Shown in pieces: positions 11,996 through 31,913 of a stretch of 45,144 nt of DNA. Below the pieces are notes generated by a model that had not been told where the DNA came from, made no database searches, and saw nothing but the letters and a program-made list of their open reading frames with translations. The position numbers and the translations under genes are program-made. This DNA comes from Gemmatimonadales bacterium (GTDB lineage: Bacteria; Gemmatimonadota; Gemmatimonadetes; Gemmatimonadales; GWC2-71-9), in NCBI GenBank assembly GCA_013140635.1, contig JABFSM010000046.1:1-45144 (forward strand), read 5' to 3'. Numbering within the stretch: the stretch's first letter is position 1; each line of letters begins with the position of its first letter.

Positions 11996-12342
11996 GAGGA
12001 GCCCTCCGCCTGTCGGGCATCGAGAATCCGGAACACCGCCGCGGCGTACTGCCGCCAGGTTCCGCTTTCCGTGCGGAGCTGTTGCCTTCCCTCGGCGGTG
12101 AGCTCGTAGAAGCGAGCCCGGCGGTTGTTCTCGGAAAGCCCCCAGGTGGCGCTGACCCACCCCTTACGGTCCAGCCGGTGGAGAGCCTGGTAGAGCCCCG
12201 CCTCCTCCAGGCCGAGAGCACCCTCCGAACGCTTCCGGATCCACCGCGAAACGGCGTAGCCATGTTGGGGTCCCCAGGTGAGCGCCTTGAGGACCAGAAG
12301 GTCGACGGTGCCTTGCAGCAGGTTGAGCGGATCGCGGCTCAT
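11992..12342 (-). CDS. PadR-family transcriptional regulator (Acidobacterial type)
   Basis: MSRDPLNLLQGTVDLLVLKAL..HGYAVSRWI..EEAGLYQALHRL..NNRRARFYELT. ATGA overlaps at both ends. Confidence 0.92.
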   Translation of the reverse strand: MSRDPLNLLQGTVDLLVLKALTWGPQHGYAVSRWIRKRSEGALGLEEAGLYQALHRLDRKGWVSATWGLSENNRRARFYELTAEGRQQLRTESGTWRQYAAAVFRILDARQAEGSS

Positions 12343-18436: not shown

Positions 18437-20569
18437 ATGGCAACCCGGCCAGCGCCCGCCTCCCGTTCCCGTCCGAGCGCTCGGCTCGAAAAGGCCGATC
18501 TCCTCGAGATGTATCGAGTGATGCTGCTCTCCAGACGTCTCGACGACAAGGAGATTCAGCTCAAGCGTCAAAACAAGATCTTCTTCCAGATCTCCGGTGC
18601 CGGCCACGAAGGGGTCTTGGTTGCCGCCGCCAAGGCGCTCCGCCCCGCCTACGACTGGTTCTACACATACTATCGCGATCGCGCGCTCTGCCTCGGCCTT
18701 GGCATGACCGCCACCGAGCAGCTCCTTTCCGCCGTCGGTGCCGCCGATGACCCCAATTCCGGCGGCCGCCAGATGCCGTCGCACTGGGGCCACAAGGACC
18801 TGAACATCGTCTCGTCATCGAGCCCGACCGGCACCCAGTTTCTCCAGGCGGTCGGCGCCGCCGAGGCGTGGCTCCGGTATTCACAGAACGAGACGATTTC
18901 GGATCGTGGGGACCGGATCAAGGGTGATGAGGTGGTGCTCGTCACCTCGGGTGACGGCACCACGAGCGAGGGAGAGTTCTGGGAGTCGCTGAGCACGGCC
19001 TGCAATCTCCAGCTGCCGATCCTCTACTTGATCGAAGACAACGGCTACGCGATCTCGGTGCCGGTCGAGGTCAATACGCCCGGTGGATCGATTTCCAAGT
19101 TGATCGCGGGCTTTCCCGGTCTCTTCGTTCAAGAGTGCGATGGCTGCGATCCGCTGGGGTCGTACGATGTGATCAGCAAAGCGGTCGACCATGTCCGCGC
19201 CCGGAAGGGCCCGGCGTTCGTGCATGCCAAAGTCATCCGGCCGTACAGCCACTCCCTTTCCGACGACGAAGTCCATTACCGTCCGCCCAGCGAGCGCGAC
19301 GCGGATGCGACGCGAGACCCGGTCCTTCGCTTTCCGAAGCAGCTCGTGGAGCAGGGAGTCGCCACTGAGGCGGAAGTCGAGCTGATCAAGAAGCAGGTGG
19401 AAGAGGAAGTCGATATCGCCACGGAGACGGCGCTGGCCTCGCCGCAGCCGGCCACCGACACCATCTATCGGTACGTGTACTCGCCTGACGTCGACCCGAC
19501 CTCTGAGCAGTTCGACACCGAAGACGACCCCCGCTTTACCGGCGAGCCGACCACGATGGTCGACTTGCTCAACGGGGCGATGAAGGATGAAATGGCGCGG
19601 GATCCTCGCATCCTCGTCTTCGGCGAGGATGTGGCCGACGTGAGCCGCGAGGCATACCTCGGCCAGGTGAAGGGGAAGGGCGGGGTCTTCAAGGTCACTT
19701 GGGGCCTCCAGAAGCTCTTCGGCGGCAATCGGGTCTACAACTCGCCGCTCGCCGAAGCCAACATCGTCGGCCGCGCGATCGGGCTCGCGACGCGCGGCCT
19801 CAAGCCGGTCGTGGAAATCCAGTTCTTCGACTACATCTGGCCGGCGTACATGCAGATTCGGAACGAGCTCGCCATCATGCGGTGGCGTTCGAACAACGCG
19901 TTCGCGGCGCCGATGGTGATCCGGGTAACCTACGGCGGCTACTTGAAGGGGGGCGCGCCCTATCACTCGCAGACCGGTGCCGCGATCTTCACCGGCATTC
20001 CCGGATTGCGCGTCGTCTGTCCCTCCACAGCGCTCGACGCGAACGGCCTCCTGCGCACCGCCATCCGCTGCGAGGATCCGGTGCTCTTCCTGGAGCACAA
20101 ACACCTCTATCGGCAAACGTACAATAAGGCGCCGAACCCCGGCCCTAACTTCATGATCCCGTTCGGCAAGGCGCGGGTCGTGAGGGAGGGGAGTGACCTG
20201 ACGGTGGTGACGTATGGCGCCTTGGTGCAGCGGACGCTGGTGGCCGCCAAAGCCCTGGAGGAGCGGATTGGGAAGAGCGTCGAGGTCATCGATCTCCGTA
20301 CCCTTTCGCCCGTCGACTACGACACGATCTACACCTCGGTCAAGAAGACGAGCCGGGTGATCGTAGCGTACGAGGATTCGCTTTCGTGGGGCTATGGCGC
20401 CGAGATCGCCGCGCGCATTGCGGACGAGACCTTCGCTTGGCTGGATGCGCCGGTGCGTCGGGTGGCGTCGACCGACACTTTCGTGGCGTACGCGCCGGAG
20501 CTCGAAGATGTGATCCTGCCGCAGAGCGAGGGCATCGCCAACGCGATGGAGGCAATGCTGCGCTGGTGA
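18437..20569 (+). CDS. 2-oxoacid (probably branched-chain) dehydrogenase E1, fused alpha/beta subunits
   Basis: [23 protein letters not shown] motif [13 protein letters not shown], then beta domain [29 protein letters not shown]. Confidence 0.9.
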
Positions 20570-20581
20570 CCGCCGCGCCGC

Positions 20582-21982
20582 TCAGCGGCGTATCGGGAAT
20601 TCCATCACGAAGGCCGCCCCCCCGTCCGCGGGGGCTTCGTGCCGCAGCCGGCCGTTCATTCGCTCCGCAATCCACCGCGCGATCGAAAGCCCGAGACCGC
20701 TCCCCGCGGCCGAGGTCCGGCCCCGGGCAAAGCGCTCGAAGATCCTGCCCCCATCCGTCGGCGGCACGCCCGGCCCCCAGTCGCGAATCCGAAGCCAAGC
20801 CCACTCCTGGTCGGTGCCGACACTGATCTCCACGGGACTATTCGGTGCGTGGACCAGAGCATTGTCCAGGAGCACCATGATGGCCCGTTCGATCAAGACC
20901 TGGTTGGCAAAGATCGGGGCCGTTTCGAAGTGGCCGATCCGGAAGACGCGGTCACGCCCGAGCGGGGTTCGGCGAGCCCGGATCATCACGGTCGAGGTGA
21001 TGTCGTCCAGGAAAAGCAGTTCGCCGGCTTCGTACTCCGCGGCGGCCTCTCCCCGCGCCATCAGCAGCAGATCTCCGATCACGTCGCCCATGCGGCGCGC
21101 CTCGCCGACGATAATGCCCAACGATTCGGTGTCCGCGGTGTTCCGCGGAGCCGACGTCAGCAGCGATTCGGCCTCACTCATGACGATGGCGGTCGGTGTC
21201 CGGAGCTCGTGGGCCGCGTCGGACAGGAACGCCAGCTGCCGGGCGGCGGCCAGGCGCTCCCGTCCGAAGGCCTCACCAAGGCGCGCGAGCAGCCGATTGA
21301 ATGAGGCGGTGAGCGTGCCCACTTCGTCCGGGATCACACGGTTAGGAATCGGGGGGAAGTCGCGCCTCCCTCCGGCGATGAGCGCCTCGGTGCGCTCCGC
21401 CGCCTCCGCCACCGCGCTGATCGGCCGGAGGGCCGGGCCGGCCGCGAGTACACCGACACCGGCGCTGGCGACGAGCAGCAGGGGAAGGCCGGCCAGGAGC
21501 ACGAGTTGCAGCGTGCGCCGTTGCTGCTCGAGGGATGCACGGGACACGCCGACCAGGACGTGGATTCCCGCTTGGAGCTCGCCGCTGAGGACCCGCGCAC
21601 TGCCGGTCGGGGTGGCGACGGTCGCCGGCCGGGGCACCCGTTGGCTGCCGAGGCTCTGGAGATCGGGGGCGCCGGGAAACCGGCGGCTCCGTCCCAACTC
21701 CCTGCCGTCGGGTCCGTACGCGATCATCGCGCGGTCGCCGTAGATCAGTTCCGCAACGATGTGCGCGACCGCCATCTCTTCTTCTGGAAACTCGGGCCGG
21801 TCCCGAGTGTAGATATCCCGGGCGGCAAGAACCGTTTCCTGGAGCGTCCGGTCGATCTGGGCGCGCGCGCCGCCATCGAGCGCCACGTAGAGCGAGGCGG
21901 CGCCCGCGGCAAGGAGGCTACCGAACCAGGCGAGATAGACGGCGGCGAGCCGGAATCGGAGACCTCTGAAGGGGTACCTCAC
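20582..21982 (-). CDS. HAMP sensor histidine kinase (OmpR/CusS-like)
   Basis: Two TM segments, HAMP, H-box SDAAHELRTP, LLDNA, DWGPG, IFERF, GSGLGLSIA. GTGA overlap with the regulator. Confidence 0.92.
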   Translation of the reverse strand: MRYPFRGLRFRLAAVYLAWFGSLLAAGAASLYVALDGGARAQIDRTLQETVLAARDIYTRDRPEFPEEEMAVAHIVAELIYGDRAMIAYGPDGRELGRSRRFPGAPDLQSLGSQRVPRPATVATPTGSARVLSGELQAGIHVLVGVSRASLEQQRRTLQLVLLAGLPLLLVASAGVGVLAAGPALRPISAVAEAAERTEALIAGGRRDFPPIPNRVIPDEVGTLTASFNRLLARLGEAFGRERLAAARQLAFLSDAAHELRTPTAIVMSEAESLLTSAPRNTADTESLGIIVGEARRMGDVIGDLLLMARGEAAAEYEAGELLFLDDITSTVMIRARRTPLGRDRVFRIGHFETAPIFANQVLIERAIMVLLDNALVHAPNSPVEISVGTDQEWAWLRIRDWGPGVPPTDGGRIFERFARGRTSAAGSGLGLSIARWIAERMNGRLRHEAPADGGAAFVMEFPIRR

Positions 21983-22662
21983 GGGGCCTCCGAACGAAGC
22001 CCCAGCATGTACCCCGCCCCCCGGATCGTGTGGAGCAGCGGCGGGCGGCCGGACTGGTCCACCTTCTTGCGAATGCGGGCGATGTACACGTCGATGACGT
22101 TCGAGAAGGGGTCGTAGCTCTCGTTCCAGACATGCGTGCTGATCTGGGGCCGATCACACACTTGGTCGCTGTGGCGGGCCAGGTACTCGAGGAGGGCGTA
22201 TTCGGTCGTCGTGAGCTCGATCCGCTGCCCTCCGCGCTCCGCGGTGCGCGGGCCGGTCTCGATCGAGAGATCCGCGACGACGATCGTTTCGGGCCGCAGG
22301 GTGGGAATCCTCCGCGCCACTGCGCGGAGCCGAGCCAGAAGCTCATCGAGCGCAAACGGCTTGACCAAGTAGTCGTCCGCGCCGTGGTCGAGGCCGCTGA
22401 CCCGGTCTTCGATGGCGTCACGCGCGGTGAGCATGACGATCGACACGAGGTTTCGGGCGGCTCGCAACTCGCGGGCGAGCGTGAGCCCTGAGCCATCAGG
22501 GAGCATAACGTCAAGCACCAGCGCTTCGTAGCTTCCCGCCCCGAGTTTGGCCCGTGCCTCCGCCAGCGATCCCGCGACGTCCACGGCATGGGCCGCTTGC
22601 CTCAGACTCTTGGCGAGAGATGCGGCAAGGCGAGGTTCGTCTTCGACAACCAGCAAACGCAT
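21979..22662 (-). CDS. OmpR-family response regulator (CusR/CzcR-like)
   Basis: MRLLVVEDE, LDVMLPDGSG, GADDYLVKPF, SNVIDVYIARIRKK. GGAGG RBS precedes ATG 22662. Confidence 0.93.
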   Translation of the reverse strand: MRLLVVEDEPRLAASLAKSLRQAAHAVDVAGSLAEARAKLGAGSYEALVLDVMLPDGSGLTLARELRAARNLVSIVMLTARDAIEDRVSGLDHGADDYLVKPFALDELLARLRAVARRIPTLRPETIVVADLSIETGPRTAERGGQRIELTTTEYALLEYLARHSDQVCDRPQISTHVWNESYDPFSNVIDVYIARIRKKVDQSGRPPLLHTIRGAGYMLGLRSEAP

Positions 22663-22728
22663 TGGGGCTACCTCCTCCGGCAGCCCCAAGATCGTGCGTC
22701 TTTCAAGCCGGATCAACCACCGAGGCGG

Positions 22729-22756
22729 TTCATCCTGAATTCATCTTGTCTTCAGT
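22729..22756 (-). promoter_or_regulatory. Direct repeats with 11-bp period, candidate OmpR-family binding site
   Basis: Plus strand TTCATC (22729), TTCATC (22740), TTCAGT (22751), upstream of the response regulator. Confidence 0.5.
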
Positions 22757-25118
22757 TGTTCGGTGCTCCGGATTGGATCCAGCTCCTCACTTTGTCGATG
22801 AAACTCTGCGGAAGCTTCCCGCTCGGCGGCATCAAGGGCCCGTTGGTCCCCTGCATGGTGCCGACCAAGAGCCCGGTGTTGGGATTGCCGGGCGTCACAT
22901 ACTTGGTGCTGTTGGTCACCAGGGCGGCATACCCCGTGGTTCTCGAGGACAAGTCGGGCTTCTGTTTTCCCGGCACATGGCAGCCACTGGTGGCGCAACT
23001 GGCCTGCAGCGTCGGGTAGATATCAGTCGTGAACGAGACCCCGGCACTTGGCGATACCGTCAGGGTGACGGACACGCTCACCGGTGAATTCGAAGCGCCC
23101 CCGGCGGCGACGGGAACCGTGGCCGTGTAGGTGCCGGCCGCGATCGCCCCGAGGGTGGGAGCCACCGTGAGGGTCGCCGGCGCCGTCGATGTGTTGAGCG
23201 AGGCGGACACCCAACCACTCGCCCCGGGGCCGTAGGCAATCGTCCCGACGGCAAGACCGGTCAACGCGCCGCCTCCCGTGTTTGAAACGGCGGCCGTCTT
23301 GGCGGCGGGGCTTGCCCCACCCGCGGTGGCGGAGAAGGCGAGCGAGGCCGGTGAGAGGCCGATCGTGGGAGGGGTGCCGGCCGCGATCGTCAGGGTTACA
23401 GACAGACTCTGCGGTGCATTGCCCGCACCGGAGGCTGAGATAGGCACGGTCGCCGAATACGTTCCCGCCGGCAGCGCGCCGGGCGATGGCGCGACCGTGA
23501 GCGTGGCGGGCGCCGTGGTCGAATTCAGAGATGCGGTGATCCAGCCGCTCCCGCCCCCGCTATAGGTGATCGCCCCGACGGAGAGACCGGCCAGGCTTCC
23601 CGTTCCGGCATTGCCCACACTCACGGTCTTCGCCGCCGGCGCCGCCCCACCGAGAGTCGTCGCAAAGGAGACCGCGCTCGGCGTGAGGGCGATGAGCGGT
23701 GCCGTGCCCGGCGGCGAGAGCACCAACGTGACGGTGACGTATTGCGGGGCGTTGCTCGCGCCGATCGCGCCGACCGGCACCGTCGCGGTATAGGTGCCCG
23801 CCGCGAGGGCGCTGACAATCGGTGTGAGCGTCAGGGTCGCAGGGGCCGTCGTCGCCGTCAGCGTGGTCTGGAGCCAGCCGGCGGCGCCGGTGTACATGGT
23901 CGGGCCGATCGAGATCCCGGTCAGGGTACCGCCCCCTGCGTTGGTAATGGACACGGTCTGCGGCGCCGGGGCAGCGCCGCCCAGTGTCCCGGCGAAGCCG
24001 ACGCTCCCCGGGGTAAGCGAGAGTGCGGCGGGAATGGCGACGCCGGTGACCGTCAGGGTGAAGGTCACGCTCTGGGATCCGGTCACATTGGACGCGCTGA
24101 CCGGTACGACGGCGGTGTAGACGCCGGCGGGGAGTCCCGCCACCGTGGGGGTGAGCGTGAGCGTCGACGGGGCCGATGTCGCCGAGAGTGCGGCAGTGAG
24201 CCAATTGCCGGCTCCTCCCGCGTAGCTGATCGTGCCGATACGAAGACCGTCCAGCGTCCCGCCCCCGCCGTTCGTGATGGCGACGGATCTCGCTTCACCA
24301 CTAGCGGCCAGAGCGGTGGTCGACAACCGGAGCGATGCGGGAACCGGCGCCGAGGTGACCGTCAGGGTAACCCGTACGGTACGCGGGCTGTTGATGGCCC
24401 CTGGAGCTCCGATGCTCACCACCGCAGCATAGGTTCCTGGACTCAGTGAGGTAGCGTCAGGCGTAAGAAGGAGGTTGGCCGGAGCAAGGGTCCCATCGAG
24501 CCGGGCGGCCAGCCATCCGGGGGTGCCGGGCTCGTAGGTCACGTCGACGATTGCCAATCCGGTCAACGGGGCGTCGTTGGCGGGAAGAATCTGCACTTGC
24601 TGGGTGACACCAGGCGTGCCGGTGACGACCCCGAAGCTGGCGGCGGTTGCGGTCATCCCGATGATCGGTCCCACCGCGGTCGGCTCCACCCGGAGCGAAA
24701 GGTCGATCGTGCGCGGGCTGTTGGCCGCGCCGGTTGCCACCAGCGTCAGGCTTGCATAGTAGGTGCCGGCGGCAAGATTTCCTGCCGCCGCCTGCAGCAT
24801 CAGCGTCGTAGGCGCTGCGGTGCCGCTCAAGGAGGCGGTCAGCCATCCCGCCCCGTCGCCGAAGTACTCCACCTTGCCGATCCCGAGGCCGCCGAGGATC
24901 CCCGGCCCGGCGTTCCCGATGGCGATAATCTGCATTGGGGCGAGGGCGTGTGTGAGCGCGCCGAACTCGGCTGAACTCTTCGAGAGCGCCATGACCGGCG
25001 GTCCTTCAGGGTCCGGGTCGAGGCCGGCCGTGGTCACGGGCTGATCGCAGGAGCCGAGGAAGAGGCCCATCGCGGCCACGAGACACCGGACCGCTCGAAG
25101 AGGCATGTCATTTCGCAT
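22752..25118 (-). CDS. Lipoprotein with six Ig/BACON-like repeats and a C-terminal c-type cytochrome domain
   Basis: Lipobox FLGSC. Six repeats of about 100 aa (N.GGG.L.GL..G.I.Y..GWL.ASL..TAP.TLT..AGTY.A.V). C-terminal VSFTTDIYPTLQASCATSGCH..LMPPSG..WIQSGAPNN gives CX4CH plus a candidate distal Met. Confidence 0.8.
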   Translation of the reverse strand: MRNDMPLRAVRCLVAAMGLFLGSCDQPVTTAGLDPDPEGPPVMALSKSSAEFGALTHALAPMQIIAIGNAGPGILGGLGIGKVEYFGDGAGWLTASLSGTAAPTTLMLQAAAGNLAAGTYYASLTLVATGAANSPRTIDLSLRVEPTAVGPIIGMTATAASFGVVTGTPGVTQQVQILPANDAPLTGLAIVDVTYEPGTPGWLAARLDGTLAPANLLLTPDATSLSPGTYAAVVSIGAPGAINSPRTVRVTLTVTSAPVPASLRLSTTALAASGEARSVAITNGGGGTLDGLRIGTISYAGGAGNWLTAALSATSAPSTLTLTPTVAGLPAGVYTAVVPVSASNVTGSQSVTFTLTVTGVAIPAALSLTPGSVGFAGTLGGAAPAPQTVSITNAGGGTLTGISIGPTMYTGAAGWLQTTLTATTAPATLTLTPIVSALAAGTYTATVPVGAIGASNAPQYVTVTLVLSPPGTAPLIALTPSAVSFATTLGGAAPAAKTVSVGNAGTGSLAGLSVGAITYSGGGSGWITASLNSTTAPATLTVAPSPGALPAGTYSATVPISASGAGNAPQSLSVTLTIAAGTPPTIGLSPASLAFSATAGGASPAAKTAAVSNTGGGALTGLAVGTIAYGPGASGWVSASLNTSTAPATLTVAPTLGAIAAGTYTATVPVAAGGASNSPVSVSVTLTVSPSAGVSFTTDIYPTLQASCATSGCHVPGKQKPDLSSRTTGYAALVTNSTKYVTPGNPNTGLLVGTMQGTNGPLMPPSGKLPQSFIDKVRSWIQSGAPNN

Positions 25119-25132
25119 CGTGAGGATACCGG

Positions 25133-25945
25133 TTAGTCGTCGTCGTCGCGGTTGCCGGGCACGGCGGAGCCTCGAATGCGGAGCGTGCCGGTGCTTGCAT
25201 CGAGCGTAACCATGAGCGCGGTCAGGCCGGTCTCGGCCGGTCCTTCGAGCAGAGCGCCGTCAGGCGCAAACCGGGCGCCATGCTTGGAACAGCGCCAGCC
25301 GCTGCCGGTTGGATCGATCACATACTGTTCATGGGGGCAGGCCAGCCCATAGGCGGCATAGGTCGAGACCCCAAGGCGAGCGACGCCGATCGGCACCGTG
25401 GTATTGCCGTCGACTCGAGCGACTCCGCCGATTGCCGCGAGCGCGGGAAACGAGGACAGACGGATCGTCAGGTCCACATTGCCACCCCCGCCGCTCACCA
25501 TGAGCGTGCCGGCTGCGGTATCGAGGGTGGTTTGCAGCTTGACCAGATCGGTCGTGCGCTGGCCGCCGGTCCAGGTGCCCGCGGTGTTCCACGTTGCGCC
25601 ATGATTCGGGCAGCGGAACCCGCCACCACCCGGCGTCACCGTCGTGCCCGCATGCGGGCAGGCCAGCGAGAAGACATCGTAGGATGCCGCGGAGGAGCGG
25701 ACGGCGGCCAGCGGCACGGGCGCGCCGGTGATGACCGCCATTCCTCCGACCGTGGCCAGCGCAGGATAGTCCGCGAGCCGAATCGAGAAACCGTCGAGGT
25801 TTGCGGCGGGGCCCGTCAGGCCCGCACCCCCGATGATGCCGTCGCCGCAAGCGCTTGCCAACAGCGCCCCGAGCGCGGCAGCGGTCGAACTCTGCAGAAA
25901 CTCCCGTCGGCTTACTTCGCCGCACCCCCCTCGGCAGTCACACAT
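25133..25945 (-). CDS. Tat-exported lipoprotein with two Rieske [2Fe-2S] domains
   Basis: SRREFL plus lipobox LASAC. Rieske boxes CPH..CPNH and CPH..CSKH. Confidence 0.85.
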   Translation of the reverse strand: MCDCRGGCGEVSRREFLQSSTAAALGALLASACGDGIIGGAGLTGPAANLDGFSIRLADYPALATVGGMAVITGAPVPLAAVRSSAASYDVFSLACPHAGTTVTPGGGGFRCPNHGATWNTAGTWTGGQRTTDLVKLQTTLDTAAGTLMVSGGGGNVDLTIRLSSFPALAAIGGVARVDGNTTVPIGVARLGVSTYAAYGLACPHEQYVIDPTGSGWRCSKHGARFAPDGALLEGPAETGLTALMVTLDASTGTLRIRGSAVPGNRDDDD

Positions 25946-25948
25946 CGC

Positions 25949-26464
25949 TTACACCTTGACCATGGCGGCCGCCCAGCCCGCCGCGTCTTTGTCGCTCTCG
26001 AACACTCGATCAGGATCCACATACACCTGGCTCCCATCCGTTCGGATCGGGAGCCGATCCATATGGCGGGTGGCCCGGCCCGAAATGAACTTCCCGTCCG
26101 GCTCGTATTTCGACTTGTGCTTCGAGCATTGAAAGCGATTGTCCTCGTTCAGCCAACGGAGCGCCGTATTCTGGTGCGGACAACTGAGCGCGAAGGCGTA
26201 TAGCGCACCCTGGTAGCGCACCAGGATGAGCTGGTTGTCCTTGTCGATGGTCGTGCCGTCCGTGGCGGGGATCGGATAGGCGACTTCCGTCGCGCGGACC
26301 CGCCTGCGCCCTGTGGCCGCGGTCACGGAAAGCGCGGCGGCGTGCCGGGCCGAAAGACCGAGGCCCAGGAACACCGTGGTCGCGAGGCTCATCGCTTCGC
26401 GGAGAAAAGCGCGGCGATCTTCGATCGCACTGCAATCGTGGCAGGAAGAGCGAACTGGCGGCAT
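25949..26464 (-). CDS. Tat-signal Rieske [2Fe-2S] protein
   Basis: DRRAFL plus hydrophobic stretch ending AAA. SCPHQNT..FQCSKHKSKY..GRATRHMDR. Confidence 0.85.
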   Translation of the reverse strand: MPPVRSSCHDCSAIEDRRAFLREAMSLATTVFLGLGLSARHAAALSVTAATGRRRVRATEVAYPIPATDGTTIDKDNQLILVRYQGALYAFALSCPHQNTALRWLNEDNRFQCSKHKSKYEPDGKFISGRATRHMDRLPIRTDGSQVYVDPDRVFESDKDAAGWAAAMVKV

Positions 26465-26489
26465 AGTCTGAATCTCCCGAGAAATGCGA

Positions 26490-27110
26490 TTACTTGAACA
26501 ACAGCATCATGGCCCAACTCGTAACCGAAAGGCCCATGGACACCAGGGCCACGTTGCGGTGCTTCTCGCGCATGGCCTGGGACCCTTCCGCGTCGTCGGC
26601 CAGCTGGACCCCTGCCCAGGTGAAGCCGGCGCCGGCGGCGACGAAAAGCAGCGAGTGGATGTATCGTTTGGCGCGTCCGGCAGGATCCTTCCGACTATCC
26701 CACAGGTTCCAGAGCCCGGTGATCGTATTGGCCGAGAAGACCACCGCCGTGGCGGTGGCGAGAGGGCGGTGCAGATTGCGCGCCCACTTCGGGGCGTCGG
26801 TGGACTTCTTGAGGATCTGGTCGCCGGTGACGAAGCTCCCCGCGAAGAGCGGCAGCATCGCGAAGCTCAGCGTCTTGTGGAGCGCCACCCGCGTCCGGTA
26901 GAAGCCGCTATACTCGATCGCGGTGGCGCGGCGGCGCCGCCGGCCGGTATCGGCGGGCACCGAGGCGGCGTTAGGGTCTATGCCGAGACGGAATGACAGT
27001 CGCGGCCGGACGGTGCCGGCCGAGGAGAGGGCCGCCGCCGGAGGGGATACGCTGCTGCCGCCGCCCGGCGCGGCGAGCAGCTGTGCGATGAGCATCACGC
27101 TCGTTTGCAT
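26490..27110 (-). CDS. Four-helix membrane protein with four His (cytochrome b561-like pattern), copy A
   Basis: His opens each of four hydrophobic helices (ALHKTLS, NLHRPLA, YIHSLLF, KHRNVAL). ATG 27110. Heme binding is inferred. Confidence 0.65.
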   Translation of the reverse strand: MQTSVMLIAQLLAAPGGGSSVSPPAAALSSAGTVRPRLSFRLGIDPNAASVPADTGRRRRRATAIEYSGFYRTRVALHKTLSFAMLPLFAGSFVTGDQILKKSTDAPKWARNLHRPLATATAVVFSANTITGLWNLWDSRKDPAGRAKRYIHSLLFVAAGAGFTWAGVQLADDAEGSQAMREKHRNVALVSMGLSVTSWAMMLLFK

Positions 27111-27123
27111 AGTATGCCGCCGC

Positions 27124-27624
27124 CTAGACCGCGAGGAGCGCGGTGCCGAGCAACAGCGAGCCAAACCAGAGCGCCAAGCTAGCCCAGGCCGAGCCGCGGA
27201 GACGCCGCCAGGCGCGCTCCGGGCGCGCGCTTCCGGCCCAGAGTTCGCGTTCCGTTCGTTGGAGGAATGCGCCGTTGCCGAGGAGGATCACAATCAGCCC
27301 CATCTTGAGCCAGAAGACCGGGGCGAAGAGCAACGATTCCAGATCGGCGGCCAGGAGGAGCCCGCCGCTCACGAATGTGACCAGGAGACCGAGGAGCACC
27401 GGGCGATGGATGCCGCGGAGTTCGCTGAGATGGGTTCGATCCGTCTCGGCGCCCGAAGGTACGAACCGGAGCGTGGCGCGATCGGTCGCGAGCGCGAATC
27501 CGCCGGCAACGAGGAGCCCGCCGAGGTGCGCGAACGTCACGAGCGTCGACAGGACATTCGAGTTGTTGTAGGACGTCGCCCAAGGCGAGGCGAGCTCCGT
27601 CAGTGTATCGGTGAGTGAGAGCAT
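27124..27624 (-). CDS. DUF6644/DUF2214-like 4-TM membrane protein
   Basis: FAHLGGLLVAGG...DR, VSGGLLL, PVFWLKMGLIVILLGNG, SLALW. AAGGA RBS precedes ATG 27624. Confidence 0.65.
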   Translation of the reverse strand: MLSLTDTLTELASPWATSYNNSNVLSTLVTFAHLGGLLVAGGFALATDRATLRFVPSGAETDRTHLSELRGIHRPVLLGLLVTFVSGGLLLAADLESLLFAPVFWLKMGLIVILLGNGAFLQRTERELWAGSARPERAWRRLRGSAWASLALWFGSLLLGTALLAV

Positions 27625-27667
27625 GGTGGATCCTTTGTCGGTGCGGCGGTGTCGTGACGGCTTACCT

Positions 27668-27684
27668 CGCATGGCAAGTGCCAG
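27668..27684 (-). promoter_or_regulatory. Sigma54 (-24/-12) promoter
   Basis: Minus strand CTGGCACTTGCCATGCG gives GG-N10-GC with TGGCAC, 44 nt before the start codon. Confidence 0.6.
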
Positions 27685-27909
27685 CTTCGGCGGTAGCGCG
27701 GAGAGTTGCAGCCATCGTGGGCCGGAAGAATGAAATCGAATCCATTGCTGTCATATCCGGCGCTCGGTGATGCGACGGGGACGGCGCATGTTGCAGTGGC
27801 TTGCACAGAGAGGAGATCGTGGATGACAGCTTCATGAATCGTCGCATGAATGCCGGGTGAACATCATTTCGCGAAATCGCTCGATGCATGGCCGATTGGC
27901 AATTCTCCT

Positions 27910-28521
27910 CTAGCGCGTGAGGATCATCACTGCCCAGTTGAGCGTCGCTATGGCCATCGAGGCCATTCCCACCGTGCGATGGAATCGCCCCGGGTCCTCG
28001 CGATTTCGCGCGCTTTCGGCCAGCGACGTGCCGGTGTAGGCGAATCCCGCCCCAGCCGCGAGGAAGAGCAGGGAGTGCACCGTCCTCTTCACTTGGCCGC
28101 GCGGGTCCTTCCTGCCCTCCATGAAATTCCAGACGCCGGTGATCGTATTTGCCGTGAAGAGGGCCGCGGTGCCATAGGCGAGCGGCTTGTGGAGGCTTCT
28201 CGCCCAGTCCGGCGGGTTGTTGCGATTCGTGAGAATGGCGTTGCCGGTGACGTATGAACCGACGAACATCGGGATCATCGCATAGCTCAGGGTGCGGTGG
28301 ATCTTGAGGCGCATCCGGTATCCGTCGCCGTATTCGATGGCCTTGATGTGCGGGCGGCTTCGGGCCGTGTCCGGTTCAGCCGCTGTGCGAAGGGTGCTCC
28401 AATCGACGGCGGCTCCATGAATCGCCGGGACGGCGGTCTTGAGAGCGGTGTCTCCCACCGCGAGCGCGGGTGAGGCCGTCGAGGAGAGGGTCTGCGCGAT
28501 CAGCGCAAAGACGGTATGCAT
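27910..28521 (-). CDS. Four-helix membrane protein with four His (cytochrome b561-like pattern), copy B
   Basis: Paralog of 26490-27110 (AIEY, KIHRTLS, SLHKPLA, ANTITG.WN, TVHSLLF, FHRTVG). Confidence 0.65.
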   Translation of the reverse strand: MHTVFALIAQTLSSTASPALAVGDTALKTAVPAIHGAAVDWSTLRTAAEPDTARSRPHIKAIEYGDGYRMRLKIHRTLSYAMIPMFVGSYVTGNAILTNRNNPPDWARSLHKPLAYGTAALFTANTITGVWNFMEGRKDPRGQVKRTVHSLLFLAAGAGFAYTGTSLAESARNREDPGRFHRTVGMASMAIATLNWAVMILTR

Positions 28522-28563
28522 GTGGACTGGTCAGCGGGTGAGGGTCGGCATGACCCCGGAGGT

Positions 28564-28580
28564 CGCAGAGGCCATGCCAG
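28564..28580 (-). promoter_or_regulatory. Sigma54 (-24/-12) promoter
   Basis: Minus strand CTGGCATGGCCTCTGCG gives GG-N10-GC, 43 nt before the start codon. Confidence 0.6.
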
Positions 28581-28680
28581 TTGCGATGCGGAGCCTGCGG
28601 ATTGCACCCTCTTGCATTCCGACCCGGCGTTGGAGCCACGCTGACCGGTGTGCCATGCAACATGGTGCGCCCACCCCGAA

Positions 28681-28718
28681 GAGGGAGGGGGGAAGAGGGA
28701 AGCGGGAAGAGGGGAGGG
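28681..28718 (+). repeat. Purine heptamer tract
   Basis: GAGGGAG GGGGGAA GAGGGAA GCGGGAA GAGGGGA, the same unit family as at 8962 and 18304. Confidence 0.6.
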
Positions 28719-28790
28719 GTCATTGCGAGGCGCGTAGCGCCGAAGCAATCTCCCGAGATCGCCACGGCCGCTTCGCGGCCTCGCGATGAC
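28719..28790. repeat. REP/RPE-like palindromic miniature element
   Basis: Terminal inverted repeats GTCATTGCGAGG / CCTCGCGATGAC (one mismatch). Internal GAAGCAATCTC..GAGATCGCCAC stem and GGCCGC-TTC-GCGGCC hairpin. Confidence 0.75.
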
Positions 28791-28821
28791 ATTCCCGCCC
28801 CCCCCACGCAACGCTTTCAGG

Positions 28822-28854
28822 ACATAGAGCGTCTATCCCGTAGACTAACTATGT
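28822..28854 (+). promoter_or_regulatory. Compound palindromic operator-like site before padR
   Basis: ACATAG-AGC-GTCTA-TCCCG-TAGAC-TAA-CTATGT, readable as two 15-mers: CATAGAGCGTCTATC (28823) and CGTAGACTAACTATG (28839). Confidence 0.6.
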
Positions 28855-28855
28855 T

Positions 28856-29203
28856 ATGGCCATGACTCCGACCCCTTCCTCCAAGCGGGACCTGCTGCCG
28901 GGTACCCTCGACATGCTCATCCTCAAGACCCTGACCAGCCAGTCGATGCACGGCTACGGGATCGCCCAGCACATTCAGCGGCTCTCGCAAGATGTCATCC
29001 GGGTGGAGGAGGGCTCCTTATATCCGGCGCTCCAGCGGATGCGCCAGAAGGGGTGGATCAAGGCGGAGTGGGGGCAGACCCCCAATAACCAGCGCGCCCG
29101 GTACTACACCGTTACCCGGACCGGCCGCCGCCAATTGGGTACCGAAGAATCCAGCTTTGCCGACCTCATGGTCGCCATCGCCCGCATCATGAAACCGGCG
29201 TGA
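28856..29203 (+). CDS. PadR-family transcriptional regulator (Acidobacterial type)
   Basis: LLPGTLDMLILKTL..HGYGIAQHI..EEGSLYPALQRM..NNQRARYYTVT. Start 28856 or 28862. Confidence 0.92.
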   Translation: MAMTPTPSSKRDLLPGTLDMLILKTLTSQSMHGYGIAQHIQRLSQDVIRVEEGSLYPALQRMRQKGWIKAEWGQTPNNQRARYYTVTRTGRRQLGTEESSFADLMVAIARIMKPA

Positions 29204-29211
29204 CAGGCGCT

Positions 29212-31899
29212 ATGCGCGAGTGGCTGGCCCGACTCCGAGATTGGTGGCGCCGAGATCGGCTCGATCGCGATCTGGGGGAGGAGCTGCGCTTTCACCGCGA
29301 GCATCTCGAGCGAGATGCGCAAGCCGCTGGGGCGGGAGCTGAAGAAGCGCGGCTCGCCGCCCGCCGGCGGCTCGGCCAGGTGACCCGGTACCAGGAAGAA
29401 GCCCGCGACCGTTGGTCGTGGCCGTGGCTCGACTCTTTCCTCCAAGATCTGCGCTATGCGATGCGCGGGCTCCGCCGCTCCCCCGGTTTTGCGGCGACCG
29501 TCATCGTGACGCTCGGGCTCGGCATCGGGGCCAACGCCGCGATGTTCAGCATCATCGACCGGCTCATGTTCCGGCCTTTTCCGTATCTCCGGGATCCAGG
29601 GGTGGTACACCGAGTCTATCTCCAGACCACGTCGCGCGGGCGGGTCTTCACCAACTTCACGATTCCGTATACTCGCTATCTCGATTTGAGAGGTTCGACC
29701 AGCTCGTTCTCCCAATACGCCGCCTTTTCGGAGCGGACGCTGGCGGTGGGTTTGGGTGAGGCGGCGCGCGAACAGCGGATCGCGGCCGTCAGCGCCTCAT
29801 TCTTCGATTTTTTCGATGCGCGTCCCGCCCTCGGCCGGTTCTTCGGCGCGCCGGAGGACTCGATTCCTCGGGGGGCCACGGTCGTTGTCCTCGGCCATGC
29901 GTTCTGGGAGACCGCCTTCGGCGGGAAGAACGTCATTGGCCAAACACTCGAGATAGGGACTCTCGGCTACACGATCATCGGCGTTGCGCCAAGAGGCTTT
30001 GTCGGTGTGGCGGAGGACCCGGTTCCGGCCGCTTTCATCCCGATCACGACCGTCGCGGCGAACGAGGGACGCTGGGATATCGACACTTATTTCACCCGCT
30101 ACAACTGGGATTTCACCAGCGTGATGGTGCGGCGAAAACCGGGAGTCACCGAAGCGTCTGCGTCGGTCGATCTGAGCAGTGCTTTTGCCAAGAGTCGCGA
30201 TGCGCAGCGACTGATCAATCCCGCCGTGGCGCCGGCCGCCGTGGCGAGGCCGCGGGGAATCGCCGGGCCGCTCAAGACCGCCGCCGGCCCGGACGCCGGA
30301 CTCGAAGCGAAGACGCTGCTGTGGGTCACCGGGGTAGCTGTCATCGTCATGCTCATTGCCTGCGCCAATGTGACCAACCTCATGTTCGCCCGCCTTCTCC
30401 GCCGCCGCCGCGAAATCGCGATGCGGCTGGCGCTCGGGGTCAGCCGGCCGCGTCTCGTAACGCAGTTGCTGACCGAGAGCTTGCTGTTGGCGTTGTTGGG
30501 GTGCGTCGCCGGTCTTGGTATTGCGCAGTGGGGCGGGGCGGCGTTCCGTCTCCTCGCGCTCCCGAACGGAACCGGCGACGCTCCGGCCGCCGATTGGCGT
30601 ACCCTTGGCGTAGCGTTCGCCTGTGCGCTCGCCGCCGGGCTGGTCACGTCGGTTGGTCCAGCGCTCCTCGCGATCCGCGGTGACTTGGCCACAACCCTCC
30701 GGGCCGGCGCGCGCGAGGGGACCTATCAGCGTTCCCGTACCCGCTCGGTGCTGCTGGTCGCACAGGGCGCCCTCTCCGTCATTCTGCTTGTCGGTGCCGG
30801 TCTTTTTGTCCGGAGCCTTGCCAACGTCCGCGCGATGCCCCTTGGCTACGACGCCAGGCCGGTCCTGATGGCCCAGCTAAGGCCTCGCGGTTTCGAGATG
30901 GACAGCGGTGCAAATCGGCGATACCAGGATCGCATGTTGGAAACCGCCCAATCCATTGTCGGCGTGGAAAGCGCGGCGCGAGTGAACACGCGCCTCTTCG
31001 CGACAAACATGGAGCTGTTGTACGTCGACGGAATCGACTCGGTTCAGAAGCTGGGCCGCTTCGTCATTCAGCTCGCCACGCCCGAATACTTCACGGTGAT
31101 GGACACCAGGATCCTCCGCGGGCGCCCGTTCACCGCGGCAGATGACAGTCGTGCGCCGCGAGTGACGGTCGTGAGCGAATCGATGGCGGAGGCGCTCTGG
31201 CCCGGCAGAGAGGCGCTTGGCCGGTGCATCCGCATCAGCGCGGACACGATGCCGTGCACCACGGTCATTGGAATCGCGGAGGATGCGGCCTACAACGACC
31301 TGACCGATGAAAGACGGCTGACGCATTACCTGCCGCTTGCCCAATCCCGGCCCGGGAGTGGAGGCACCATCCTGCTGCGGATGGCGGGACGAGAGCCGTC
31401 CTCCAGCGTCGAGCAGGTCCGGCGCGAACTGCAGAGAGTGATGCCGGGGCAAGGCTACGTCACCGTTCGCCCGCTCGAAGAGATCGTCGACGGTCAACGG
31501 CGGTCATGGAAGCTCGGCGCCACCATGTTCGTGGCCTTCGGCATTCTGGCCCTGCTTGTGGCCGCCGTGGGGCTCTATGGGGTGATCTCGTACAACGTGG
31601 CTCAGCGGCTGCACGAGCTTGGCGTGCGAGTGGCGCTCGGCGCGCAGCCGCGCGATGTGGTGCGGCTGGTGGTCGGCCAGGGCCTCCGATTCGCCCTGTT
31701 GGGCATCGGCGTCGGGTTGACGCTCGCGTTGTTGGGTGCCCGGTGGATTCAACCGCTGCTCTTTCGTCAGTCGGCGCGGGATCCAGTCACCTACGGCGCG
31801 ATCGCGGGGATCCTCCTGCTCGTGGCTTTGATGGCGAGCGCCATTCCCGCGCGACGCGCCACCCGCGCCGACCCCAATTCAGCGCTCCGCTCCGACTGA
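29212..31899 (+). CDS. ADOP-family duplicated permease
   Basis: MREWLARLRDWWRRDRLDRDLGEELRFH..QDLRYA..LGLGIGANAAMFS, two FtsX modules, ends RATRADPNSALRSD. Alternative GTG start at 29200. Confidence 0.9.
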   Translation: MREWLARLRDWWRRDRLDRDLGEELRFHREHLERDAQAAGAGAEEARLAARRRLGQVTRYQEEARDRWSWPWLDSFLQDLRYAMRGLRRSPGFAATVIVTLGLGIGANAAMFSIIDRLMFRPFPYLRDPGVVHRVYLQTTSRGRVFTNFTIPYTRYLDLRGSTSSFSQYAAFSERTLAVGLGEAAREQRIAAVSASFFDFFDARPALGRFFGAPEDSIPRGATVVVLGHAFWETAFGGKNVIGQTLEIGTLGYTIIGVAPRGFVGVAEDPVPAAFIPITTVAANEGRWDIDTYFTRYNWDFTSVMVRRKPGVTEASASVDLSSAFAKSRDAQRLINPAVAPAAVARPRGIAGPLKTAAGPDAGLEAKTLLWVTGVAVIVMLIACANVTNLMFARLLRRRREIAMRLALGVSRPRLVTQLLTESLLLALLGCVAGLGIAQWGGAAFRLLALPNGTGDAPAADWRTLGVAFACALAAGLVTSVGPALLAIRGDLATTLRAGAREGTYQRSRTRSVLLVAQGALSVILLVGAGLFVRSLANVRAMPLGYDARPVLMAQLRPRGFEMDSGANRRYQDRMLETAQSIVGVESAARVNTRLFATNMELLYVDGIDSVQKLGRFVIQLATPEYFTVMDTRILRGRPFTAADDSRAPRVTVVSESMAEALWPGREALGRCIRISADTMPCTTVIGIAEDAAYNDLTDERRLTHYLPLAQSRPGSGGTILLRMAGREPSSSVEQVRRELQRVMPGQGYVTVRPLEEIVDGQRRSWKLGATMFVAFGILALLVAAVGLYGVISYNVAQRLHELGVRVALGAQPRDVVRLVVGQGLRFALLGIGVGLTLALLGARWIQPLLFRQSARDPVTYGAIAGILLLVALMASAIPARRATRADPNSALRSD

Positions 31900-31913
31900 G
31901 GGGGGACAGCTCC

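Follow-up and report, generated by a model that had tools for sequence, protein, structure and literature searches.

Four-histidine membrane proteins, a CopD-like protein and Tat-type Rieske proteins share a conserved gene cluster in Gemmatimonadota: a candidate membrane-to-periplasm redox module

Organization of the Gene Cluster

The window analyzed here (the whole 45,144-nucleotide stretch of contig JABFSM010000046.1, assembly GCA_013140635.1, from a Gemmatimonadales bacterium) contains eight co-oriented minus-strand genes, G1 to G8, spanning positions 20582 to 28521. They encode two membrane proteins with four conserved histidines (the four-His proteins G1 and G3), a CopD-like membrane protein (G2), two Rieske [2Fe-2S] proteins with twin-arginine translocation (Tat) signals (G4 and G5), a repeat lipoprotein (G6) and a two-component pair (G7 and G8); the cluster is examined as a candidate redox module (Table 1). 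A preliminary description of this DNA had listed six genes followed by a two-component pair. All the genes it described are present, but the count is eight genes and not six plus a pair. The tight packing it reported (3–25 nt) agrees with the gaps between consecutive genes from G2 to G6, which are 13, 25, 3 and 14 nt. G1 is set apart by a 285-nt gap on the upstream side of G2; the G7 and G8 reading frames share 4 nt. Curated Pfam and NCBIfam thresholds are passed in the cluster by the Rieske and two-component domains only.

Table 1. Genes and motifs of the cluster, and PadR/permease genes (positions in the window)
Feature	Positions	Strand	Remarks
G1, four-His membrane protein, paralogue A	27910–28521	−	203 aa
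G2, CopD/HemJ/DUF6644-like four-helix membrane protein	27124–27624	−	166 aa; ORF extendable to 27672; likely start ATG at 27624
G3, four-His membrane protein, paralogue B	26490–27110	−	206 aa; ORF extendable to 27164; likely start ATG at 27110
G4, Tat single Rieske [2Fe-2S] protein	25949–26464	−	171 aa
G4 Cys pair, C-H-D-C-x5-R-R	26411–26443	−	residues 8–18, signal-peptide n-region
G4 Rieske cluster motif, CPH-x15-CSKHKSKY	26105–26182	−	residues 95–120
G5, Tat tandem-Rieske lipoprotein	25133–25945	−	270 aa
G5 Cys pair region	25904–25942	−	
G6, six-repeat lipoprotein, C-terminal CX4CH	22752–25118	−	788 aa
G6 C708-x4-C713-H714 (CATSGCH), putative haem c site	22977–22997	−	
G6 Met763 (in GPLMPP), candidate sixth ligand	22830–22832	−	
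G7, OmpR-type response regulator	21979–22716	−	likely start ATG at 22662
G8, sensor histidine kinase with HAMP domain	20582–21982	−	
PadR/permease gene	9344–12160	−	
PadR/permease gene	28856–29203	+	
PadR/permease gene	29200–31899	+	
PadR/permease gene	31506–34601	+	

Conserved Core and Distribution

A scan with one genome per species returned 187 relatives. The 80 loci fetched came mostly from Gemmatimonadota, with some from Vicinamibacteria and other Acidobacteriota; they were searched by tblastn with the eight window proteins, and the 60 with at least 2.5 kb downstream of the four-His gene were counted. A Rieske gene was found in 58 of the 60, a G4-type Rieske gene in 54, a G2-like gene in 49 and a G5-like gene in 37; a related OmpR-type response regulator was present in 10 and a G6 homologue in 3. 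The genome of origin has 6 Pfam Rieske matches in 3.82 Mb, and by our own arithmetic the chance of a Rieske domain lying within 4 kb of a random point is about 1%. Since one was seen in 58 of 60 related loci, the arrangement exceeds chance.

Clustering of the open reading frames (ORFs) of the 80 loci and the window returned three widespread real families: four-His (81 loci), Rieske (71) and G2-like (67). Another 81-locus cluster consisted of antisense ORFs, and the next real family, response regulators, was present in 25 of 81 loci. The commonest gene orders were four-His, G2-like, G4-type, G5-type (16 of 57 loci) and four-His, G2-like, G4-type (10 of 57); at least one Rieske gene occurred in 54 of the 57 loci and at least two in 34. 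What is conserved, the core, comprises a four-His protein, a CopD-like protein and between one and four Rieske proteins. A few close relatives also carry, as add-ons, the tandem Rieske protein, the stalked protein with the haem-c-like domain and the regulator pair. All eight genes are found in the same order in a congener (G304 contig 3, the contig of locus L002), whose proteins are 48–77% identical to the eight of the window.

These counts bear on the earlier proposal that electrons pass from haem b through three [2Fe-2S] centres to a tethered haem c. Co-occurrence in other genomes, named there beforehand as one of the points on which the proposal would stand or fall, was found for the four-His/CopD-like/Rieske core in Gemmatimonadota and some Acidobacteriota. 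The two proteins suggested there for a neighbourhood search behaved differently: the four-His/Rieske neighbourhood is conserved (58/60), but two Rieske motifs are found in only 4 of 51 second-class (G5-like) Rieske ORFs, window G5 being one of the four. With G6 in 3/60 loci and the regulator in 10/60, the linear chain does not hold up as the conserved unit.

The neighbours of the core were tallied as well, taking the longest ORF next to it on the downstream side (59 loci) and on the upstream side (58 loci). No Pfam family appeared in more than 4 of the 59 downstream neighbours, and upstream only sigma-54 response regulators recurred (8/58). By these tallies and the clustering, no catalytic partner is conserved beside the core.

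One sample of 301 Gemmatimonadota genomes was searched for each core family (E ≤ 1e-25 for G4-type and ≤ 1e-15 for G2-like proteins). Four-His genes were detected in 91 genomes, G4-type Rieske genes in 96 and G2-like genes in 91; 85 genomes had all three families, 99 had one or more of them and 202 had none. A G4-type Rieske gene accompanied the four-His gene in 90 of 91 genomes. All matches fell in three families of one order; the remaining nine families of the sample, with 102 genomes, gave none. In the genus of the window, the four-His family was found in 13 of 26 genomes, and in 7 of the 11 of high quality. Because the genomes are related, the co-occurrence counts overstate independence. 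Their pattern is still what an accessory module would show whose genes are acquired and lost together, and with such a distribution it is not a core respiratory complex.

Four-His Membrane Proteins

G1 and G3 are 43% identical (E 2e-56) and are paralogues. Their four histidines (His75, His111, His149 and His181 in G1; His78, His114, His152 and His184 in G3) were invariant in 22 sequences and then in 90 diverse sequences (alignment A4). Also invariant among the 90, in G3 numbering, are Y71, R74, P87, G96, T131, G132, G162, F163 and M202; the alignment consensus has an Arg beside each His, and three Gly are invariant. In the AlphaFold2 (AF2) model of G1 (predicted local distance difference test, pLDDT, 75.5), four long helices cover residues 66–98, 105–136, 143–170 and 177–201, and each His lies 4–9 residues past the start of one of them. 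With such placement, His 1 and 3 sit towards one end of the bundle, and His 2 and 4 towards the opposite end. The flanking Arg residues are what haem propionates would need. From this pattern we infer a two-haem transmembrane wire with two bis-His haem b sites, one near each face; the membrane crossing via haem b of the preliminary description fits four invariant histidines, one near the start of each helix.

Family profiles gave a consistent but sub-threshold signal. DUF4079 (PF13301, cut-off 31.4 bits) scored 23.9 bits with G3 and 18.9 with G1, each over about 30 residues, and Ni_hydr_CYTB (PF01292, cut-off 30.1 bits) scored 14.4 with G1 and 13.4 with G3; both proteins also match DUF420 below its cut-off. 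Among the 90 family members, DUF4079 was weakly matched by 35 (best 8.6e-6), Ni_hydr_CYTB at E ≤ 0.01 by 6 (best 7.8e-5) and Cytochrom_B561, the eukaryotic b561 family, by 1. PF00033 was absent from the G1 and G3 matches at E ≤ 0.1 and from the nine families matched by the 90 members. The names "b561-like" for these proteins and "DUF6644-like" for G2 in the preliminary description therefore describe a likeness that can be seen, but family membership fails, as all scores are sub-threshold. Among solved sequences, the only ones that a four-His profile found at E < 0.01 were 4D2, a two-haem four-helix bundle designed de novo, and variants of it, with the match covering a loop-plus-His-helix motif.

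A word-indexed search returned 53 G1 homologues, none with a recorded Pfam domain, and an exhaustive profile search returned 791 cluster representatives (50% identity) at E ≤ 0.001, 372 of them at 1e-30 or better. An N-terminal hydrophobic segment is present in 77 of 85 four-His proteins, preceded by Lys/Arg in only 27 of those 77, and is followed by an Ala/Pro-rich linker with a median of 56 residues. Together, segment and linker suggest a periplasmic N-terminus. In either orientation, the modelled helices leave one His pair near each membrane face. No fusions were seen among the longer family members, which differ only by longer Ala/Pro-rich linkers.

Solitary G1-like genes, with no CopD-like or Rieske neighbour in the fetched flanks, were observed at L006, L007, L086 (G322:C1) and L089 (G302:C13). 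Given such orphans and the 285 nt that separate G1 from the operon, paralogue A may be a separate unit. Structure neighbours of the four-His model in the Atlas at TM ~0.5, which are leads only, included DUF2231 proteins, DUF2231-Rieske fusions from Actinomycetota and, from Rokubacteria, fusions of CopD with cytochrome c. The pairing of a small helical membrane domain with an exported Rieske or haem c domain may be more widespread.

CopD-like Membrane Protein

The AF2 model of G2 (pLDDT 96.5) has an N-terminal amphipathic helix followed by four transmembrane helices. Across 38 sequences (alignment A2 numbering), the invariant residues include His34, His74, Asp49, Lys108, Asn118-Gly119 and Glu126, His34 and His74 corresponding to His33 and His73 of G2. 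The protein scores 17.9–18.3 bits against DUF6644 (PF20349, cut-off 27) and matches DUF2214 and UPF0093 below their cut-offs; CopD (PF05425) is not among its own matches. When weak matches at E up to 0.05 were counted in the 38 relatives, DUF2214 was hit by 32, DUF6644 by 27, UPF0093 (HemJ) by 18 and CopD by 8, with best values of 6.3e-8 for DUF6644 and 0.0015 for CopD. Automatic naming in the Atlas labels G2 clusters "Copper resistance D domain". A DUF6644 search in 21 relatives and 14 control genomes gave nothing above cut-off, and no longer, fused forms of G2 were found, which is weak evidence. HemJ binds haem via the His of its first helix; by analogy, one may speculate that G2 could likewise carry a cofactor.

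Rieske Proteins

Both Tat-type proteins pass the Pfam Rieske cut-off of 20.3 bits, G4 with 35.5 bits and G5 with 44 bits in two stretches. The G4 motif contains the two Cys and two His ligands plus the hydrogen-bond pair Ser118/Tyr120. In 41 G4-like sequences, C95, H97, C113, H116 and S118 are invariant and Y120 is at least 90% conserved. Reading CPHQNT...CSKHKS, G4 is without the two disulfide cysteines of bc1/b6f Rieske proteins (CTHLGC...CPCHGS). Among solved proteins it comes closest to two Rieske domains of Kuenenia bc complexes, 9rk3 and 9rk4, followed by a b6f Rieske protein and AioB (E 4e-5). In yeast mutants, the Ser and Tyr were reported to raise the Rieske potential by 130 and 65 mV, and two Kuenenia Rieske proteins were measured at +303 and +335 mV (PMC12954380). 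With the pair retained, G4 is probably a high-potential Rieske protein despite the missing disulfide cysteines.

Set against the consensus S/T-R-R-x-F-L-K, the twin-arginine motifs read DRRAFLRE in G4 and SRREFLQ in G5, each followed by a hydrophobic region, and such motifs occur in 63 of 65 G4-like and 49 of 51 G5-like ORFs; Pfam TAT_signal scores 19.5 bits on G5 (cut-off 22.7). The two classes differ in their anchoring: a lipobox is present in 0 of 65 G4-like versus 47 of 51 G5-like ORFs, and an AxA region follows the h-region in 61 of 65 G4-like ORFs. As judged from this cleavage region and the missing lipobox, G4 is probably cleaved and soluble in the periplasm.

G5 starts M-C-D-C-x3-C-x4-R-R and has its lipobox Cys at residue 33 and Rieske motifs at residues 96–115 and 203–222. 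No solved relative was found by sequence search. The classical disulfide type CTHxGC...CPCH occurs in 10 of 51 G5-like proteins of the related loci. One related locus encodes a 712-aa Tat lipoprotein (L038:11041-13179, + strand) in which G6-like repeats lie between an N-terminal and a C-terminal Rieske domain, so the repeat "stalk" spaces Rieske centres too and not only a haem-c-like domain.

Cysteine Pair Preceding the Twin-Arginine Motif

In both Rieske classes, a near-universal Cys pair adjoins the twin-arginine motif on its N-terminal side, as CxxC or, in the closest relatives, CxCxxxC. C8, C11, R17 and R18 are invariant in the 41 G4-like sequences. Among ORFs with a Tat motif, the pair was present in 61 of 63 G4-like and 47 of 49 G5-like ones (108/112 in total), and the remaining two G5-like ORFs have it further upstream. 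Many G5-like precursors start M-x-C-x-x-C, a start similar to the Cu(I) motif of CopZ/Atx1-type proteins. No Cys pair is present in the genome's canonical bc-type Rieske protein, whose sequence begins M-N-R-R.

A general Tat-signal feature of this genome was considered as an explanation and rejected: a loose RR-plus-hydrophobic pattern gave 747 candidates, of which 8 had an upstream CxxC and only G4 was credible. As the G5-like proteins are lipoproteins, the pair should leave with the signal peptide and so act before or during export. A literature search without full texts returned no description of CXXC in Tat n-regions. A Cys pair at this place bears on how cofactor insertion is checked before export.

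Repeat Lipoprotein

G6 has the lipobox LFLGSC24 with Asp at +2, six repeats of about 110 aa (anchored at residues 118, 228, 332, 441, 552 and 662 by self-comparison) and a C-terminal domain of about 95 aa; its only Cys residues are 12, 24, 708 and 713. The "Ig repeats" of the preliminary description are real as repeats, but their Ig identity has no Pfam support, Ig_2 appearing only at E 0.049. Its cytochrome c end was partly borne out: the domain is haem-c-like, but the motif is CX4CH instead of CXXCH and the match to PSCyt1 is sub-threshold. The last 99 residues align to positions 3–59 of the 59 in PSCyt1 (PF07635) with E 0.013 and 16.6 bits (cut-off 22). The motif is kept in homologues, as CLSSGCH in L002 and CLSGGCH in L004. 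CX4CH sites bind haem in cytochromes c3, and by this analogy the G6 site likely carries haem c. The downstream Met-Pro and the W-I-x-x-G-A end of the domain are typical of PSCyt1. Only four proteins of similar length carry the C-terminal domain, for which no solved relative was found by sequence; G6 as a whole gave no family match.

Two-Component Pair and Other Regulators

G7 consists of the Pfam domains Response_reg and Trans_reg_C. Its best NCBIfam match is RppA (206.9 bits, cut-off 250), followed by cztR_silR_copR (195.5 bits, cut-off 279.2); HprR is also among its matches (152.9 bits). G8 best matches the heavy-metal sensor kinase family cztS_silS_copS over its full length (E 1e-38, 133.5 bits, cut-off 292.55). 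The heavy-metal (CopRS/CusRS/CzcRS) subfamilies are thus best or near-best matches, yet neither protein reaches their cut-offs. A CopRS/HprRS-like pair placed after the module implies that the window copy is probably induced by an envelope metal or oxidant signal. At several other loci, the gene immediately preceding the four-His gene encodes a sigma-54-dependent response regulator (8/58 upstream neighbours, e.g. L078:6593-8263), and different lineages seem to wire the same core to different sensors.

Flanking Genes and Genome Setting

The genes that border the cluster are unrelated to it: PadR and MacB-type permeases at one end, an E1 dehydrogenase at the other. The window contains three large MacB_PCD/FtsX-type permease genes, two of which form a tandem immediately behind the gene of a PadR-family regulator oriented divergently from the redox cluster. 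An Rfam scan of positions 20000–29500 found no RNA element at E ≤ 0.3, and a promoter/terminator scan showed no excess over shuffled sequences.

TatC and Ccm-type cytochrome c maturation genes are present in the genome. Its sole Pfam cytochrome b match (G000:C211, ~25.4–27.1 kb, minus strand) is a 527-aa open frame whose C-terminal half is rich in 4Fe-4S ferredoxin-type Cys motifs, which makes it an unusual fused cytochrome b; the canonical Rieske protein (CTHRGC...CPCHGSEY) is encoded on a separate contig, C176. The idea that the module replaces complex III was rejected, because the genome has these two proteins and the module is accessory.

Proposed Mechanism and Alternative Readings

We regard the cluster, at roughly even confidence, as a conserved uncharacterised module for electron transfer between the cytoplasmic membrane and exported Rieske proteins. 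According to this proposal, the four-His four-helix bundle would bind two b haems, one near each membrane face, and would work with the CopD/HemJ-like protein. Electrons from the quinol pool or the cytoplasmic side would cross the membrane through the haems and reduce the Tat-exported G4, which would serve as a periplasmic carrier towards further Rieske lipoproteins and other acceptors. The window would add to this a second four-His paralogue, the tandem-Rieske lipoprotein and the six-repeat lipoprotein, whose haem-c-like domain would stand far from its lipid anchor. A high predicted potential of G4 favours flow from the membrane to the Rieske protein. A complex prediction (G3 residues 58–206, G2 and two haems, with G4 residues 45–171 as partner) scored 0.12 and 0.02 against a mark of 0.32, and was used neither way.

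Several observations weigh against this proposal. G1, G2 and G3 are below the curated cut-off of every listed Pfam family, and NCBIfam lists none for them. Foldseek searches with the G1 and G2 models against the PDB, and a VIA-align wide search with the G2 model, returned generic four-helix bundles only, none at E ≤ 0.001, so that the fold family is neither assigned nor excluded. If the N-terminus is periplasmic, the loop that is most conserved and, by the Lys/Arg count of G1, most basic would face outwards. Some four-His genes are solitary in other genomes, a detectable G2-like gene is absent from 11 of 60 loci, and the module is accessory (91/301 genomes of the phylum, 13/26 of the genus) in a genome that also encodes a canonical cytochrome b and a Rieske protein of the bc type. 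Neither a donor nor an acceptor enzyme is conserved beside the core in the clustering of 80 loci or the neighbour tallies. Further along the supposed path, CX4CH is an unusual haem c site with a sub-threshold PSCyt1 match, and neither G5 Rieske domain has the Ser/Tyr pair. As G4 has this pair and the G5 domains do not, a monotonic, downhill order G4, G5, haem c is doubtful.

One alternative takes the core for an independent analogue of the Rieske/cytochrome b complex, with the four-His protein in the place of cytochrome b6, the CopD-like protein as subunit IV and G4 as the Rieske subunit, an assignment we consider unlikely. Quinol would be oxidised near the periplasmic face, one electron passing to G4 and one across the membrane via the haems, which seems to us equally improbable as a detailed scheme; the further step, in which the Rieske protein is freed as a mobile carrier instead of swinging on an anchor and reduces the G6 haem c in the window, is likewise given little credence. 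The parts list does correspond to a minimal b6f core (a four-transmembrane four-His protein, a small multi-helix partner and a Tat Rieske protein), G4 falls in the bc/b6f/AioB branch by its best solved relatives with the Ser/Tyr pair kept, and 10 of 51 second Rieske proteins are of the classical disulfide type. However, the four-His protein does not resemble cytochrome b in sequence (no match to PF00033) and carries one His per helix and not two on each of two helices. G4 is without disulfide cysteines and seemingly cleaved (AxA in 61/65), a quinone site cannot be demonstrated, and the genome already has cytochrome b and a canonical Rieske protein beside an accessory module. A bolder combination, in which the core is a second, independently evolved Rieske/haem-b quinol oxidoreductase with a diffusible or lipid-anchored Rieske carrier and the Cys pair is a new cytoplasmic checkpoint coupling metal or cluster loading to export, would be a long shot.

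Copper or metal handling would instead have the CopD-like protein move a metal ion while the haem and Rieske proteins supply or remove an electron for its redox change; we give this a low probability. Weak CopD-superfamily matches of G2-like proteins (CopD 8/38, DUF2214 32/38) and the "Copper resistance D domain" label agree with it, as do the heavy-metal sensor kinase family as best match of G8 and RppA and CopR-type regulators as those of G7, but all these family scores are sub-threshold. No CopA, CopC, CopZ, multicopper oxidase or PCuAC was among the 25 commonest neighbour families, rarer families lying outside that tally. An extension in which the Cys pair binds the metal and the CopRS-like pair induces the genes under metal stress is no more than slightly credible: many Rieske precursors do start M-x-C-x-x-C, but a pair in a signal peptide predicted to be cut off could not act in the periplasm, and only 10 of 60 loci have a regulator of the OmpR type close to the core.

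A role in envelope oxidative-stress repair or defence of the MsrPQ kind appears very unlikely. Here a haem-b protein would feed respiratory electrons to an exported redox protein, and in MsrPQ a Sec-inserted haem-b protein is paired with a Tat-exported partner (PMC5449189). The layout is the same, including the adjacent CusRS/HprRS-family pair in the window with HprR among the G7 matches (152.9 bits), and the patchy accessory distribution suits a stress function. That the exported protein reduces damaged or reactive periplasmic molecules under HprRS/CopRS-like control in the window is just as hard to credit: the conserved core lacks a catalytic subunit, be it a molybdenum enzyme, a peroxidase or a protein with a thioredoxin fold, Rieske proteins of high potential reduce poorly, and Ferric_reduct (MsrQ) was not among the matches listed.

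Finally, the four His might bind a metal ion or form a channel or sensor, with a separate Rieske role and a neighbourhood of co-regulation only, in keeping with the fact that no family membership proves haem binding, with the unspecific structure searches and with orphan four-His genes lacking Rieske neighbours; this is highly improbable, as 90 of 91 four-His genomes have a G4-type Rieske gene, the two are adjacent in 58 of 60 loci, and one His per helix near the helix starts together with Arg and invariant Gly has the look of a two-haem bundle, the profile matching 4D2.

Returning to the proposed electron-transfer module, its interest lies in the partners of the Rieske protein. To our knowledge, Rieske proteins outside oxygenases are known almost only from bc-type complexes and arsenite oxidase. 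In the present module, a Rieske protein of the bc type is linked with two membrane families for which neither a curated family nor literature was found, a link that holds in about 30% of the sampled Gemmatimonadota genomes and in some Acidobacteriota, with a four-His family of about 790 clusters at 50% identity. If true, the proposal would add a new redox route from membrane to periplasm in bacteria of soil and freshwater that are abundant but little studied, and would give functions to two orphan membrane families.

Comparison with Known Systems

As the preliminary description had stated, the cluster contains no PetB/QcrB-type cytochrome b, oxygenase alpha subunit or molybdopterin subunit according to Pfam, NCBIfam and the flank scan. 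Its view that the combination is not a named system also stands: no described system was matched in Pfam, in NCBIfam or in a literature search (without full texts) on DUF6644, DUF4079 and periplasmic or soluble Rieske proteins.

With arsenite oxidase, the cluster shares the Tat signal on a Rieske protein of the same branch as AioB, but it differs in that no AioA is found in the window and no molybdopterin family among the 25 neighbour families seen most often at the related loci. In G6, the C-terminal ~95 aa align with nearly the full PSCyt1 profile and have a Cys...Cys-His motif, whereas the sub-threshold score, CX4CH in place of CXXCH and the fusion to six repeats on a lipoprotein set it apart.

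The four-His proteins resemble the b561, Ni_hydr_CYTB and DUF4079 families in having four transmembrane helices, four conserved His and weak, repeated profile matches. G1 and G3 are nevertheless sub-threshold, DUF4079 matches cover only about 30 residues, and the family has its own invariant pattern, N-terminal segment and Ala/Pro linker. Similarly, G2 shares with CopD, HemJ, DUF2214 and DUF6644 a four-helix architecture, an invariant His in the first transmembrane helix and weak matches to all four, yet it is sub-threshold throughout. The partner of CopD is a copper chaperone such as CopC; no CopC-type family appeared in the neighbour tallies of related loci and no CopC or tetrapyrrole gene lies near G2, which is instead partnered with four-His and Rieske genes.

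MsrPQ (YedYZ) with HprRS offers the same arrangement of a small polytopic, predicted b-haem membrane protein beside a Tat-exported cofactor protein, and in the window also an adjacent two-component pair of the CusRS/HprRS family. The exported partner here is a Rieske protein and not a molybdenum enzyme, and the core includes a second, CopD-like membrane protein; neither Ferric_reduct (MsrQ) nor the molybdenum-enzyme (MsrP) family was among the matches of the eight proteins or the family members.

The bc1/b6f complexes differ from the module in three respects. Their cytochrome b carries two His each on helices B and D, whereas the four-His protein has one per helix and no likeness to PF00033/PF00032; their Rieske protein is membrane-anchored, whereas G4 has no disulfide cysteines and is apparently cleaved and, by prediction, soluble; and the module is accessory, alongside a canonical cytochrome b and Rieske protein in the same genome. 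Shared with them are a Tat Rieske protein of the bc/b6f/AioB branch, G4 having the full set of Rieske ligands with the Ser/Tyr pair, a four-helix partner with four conserved His, for which two haems are expected, a further small multi-helix subunit and, in the window only, a c-type haem domain encoded downstream.

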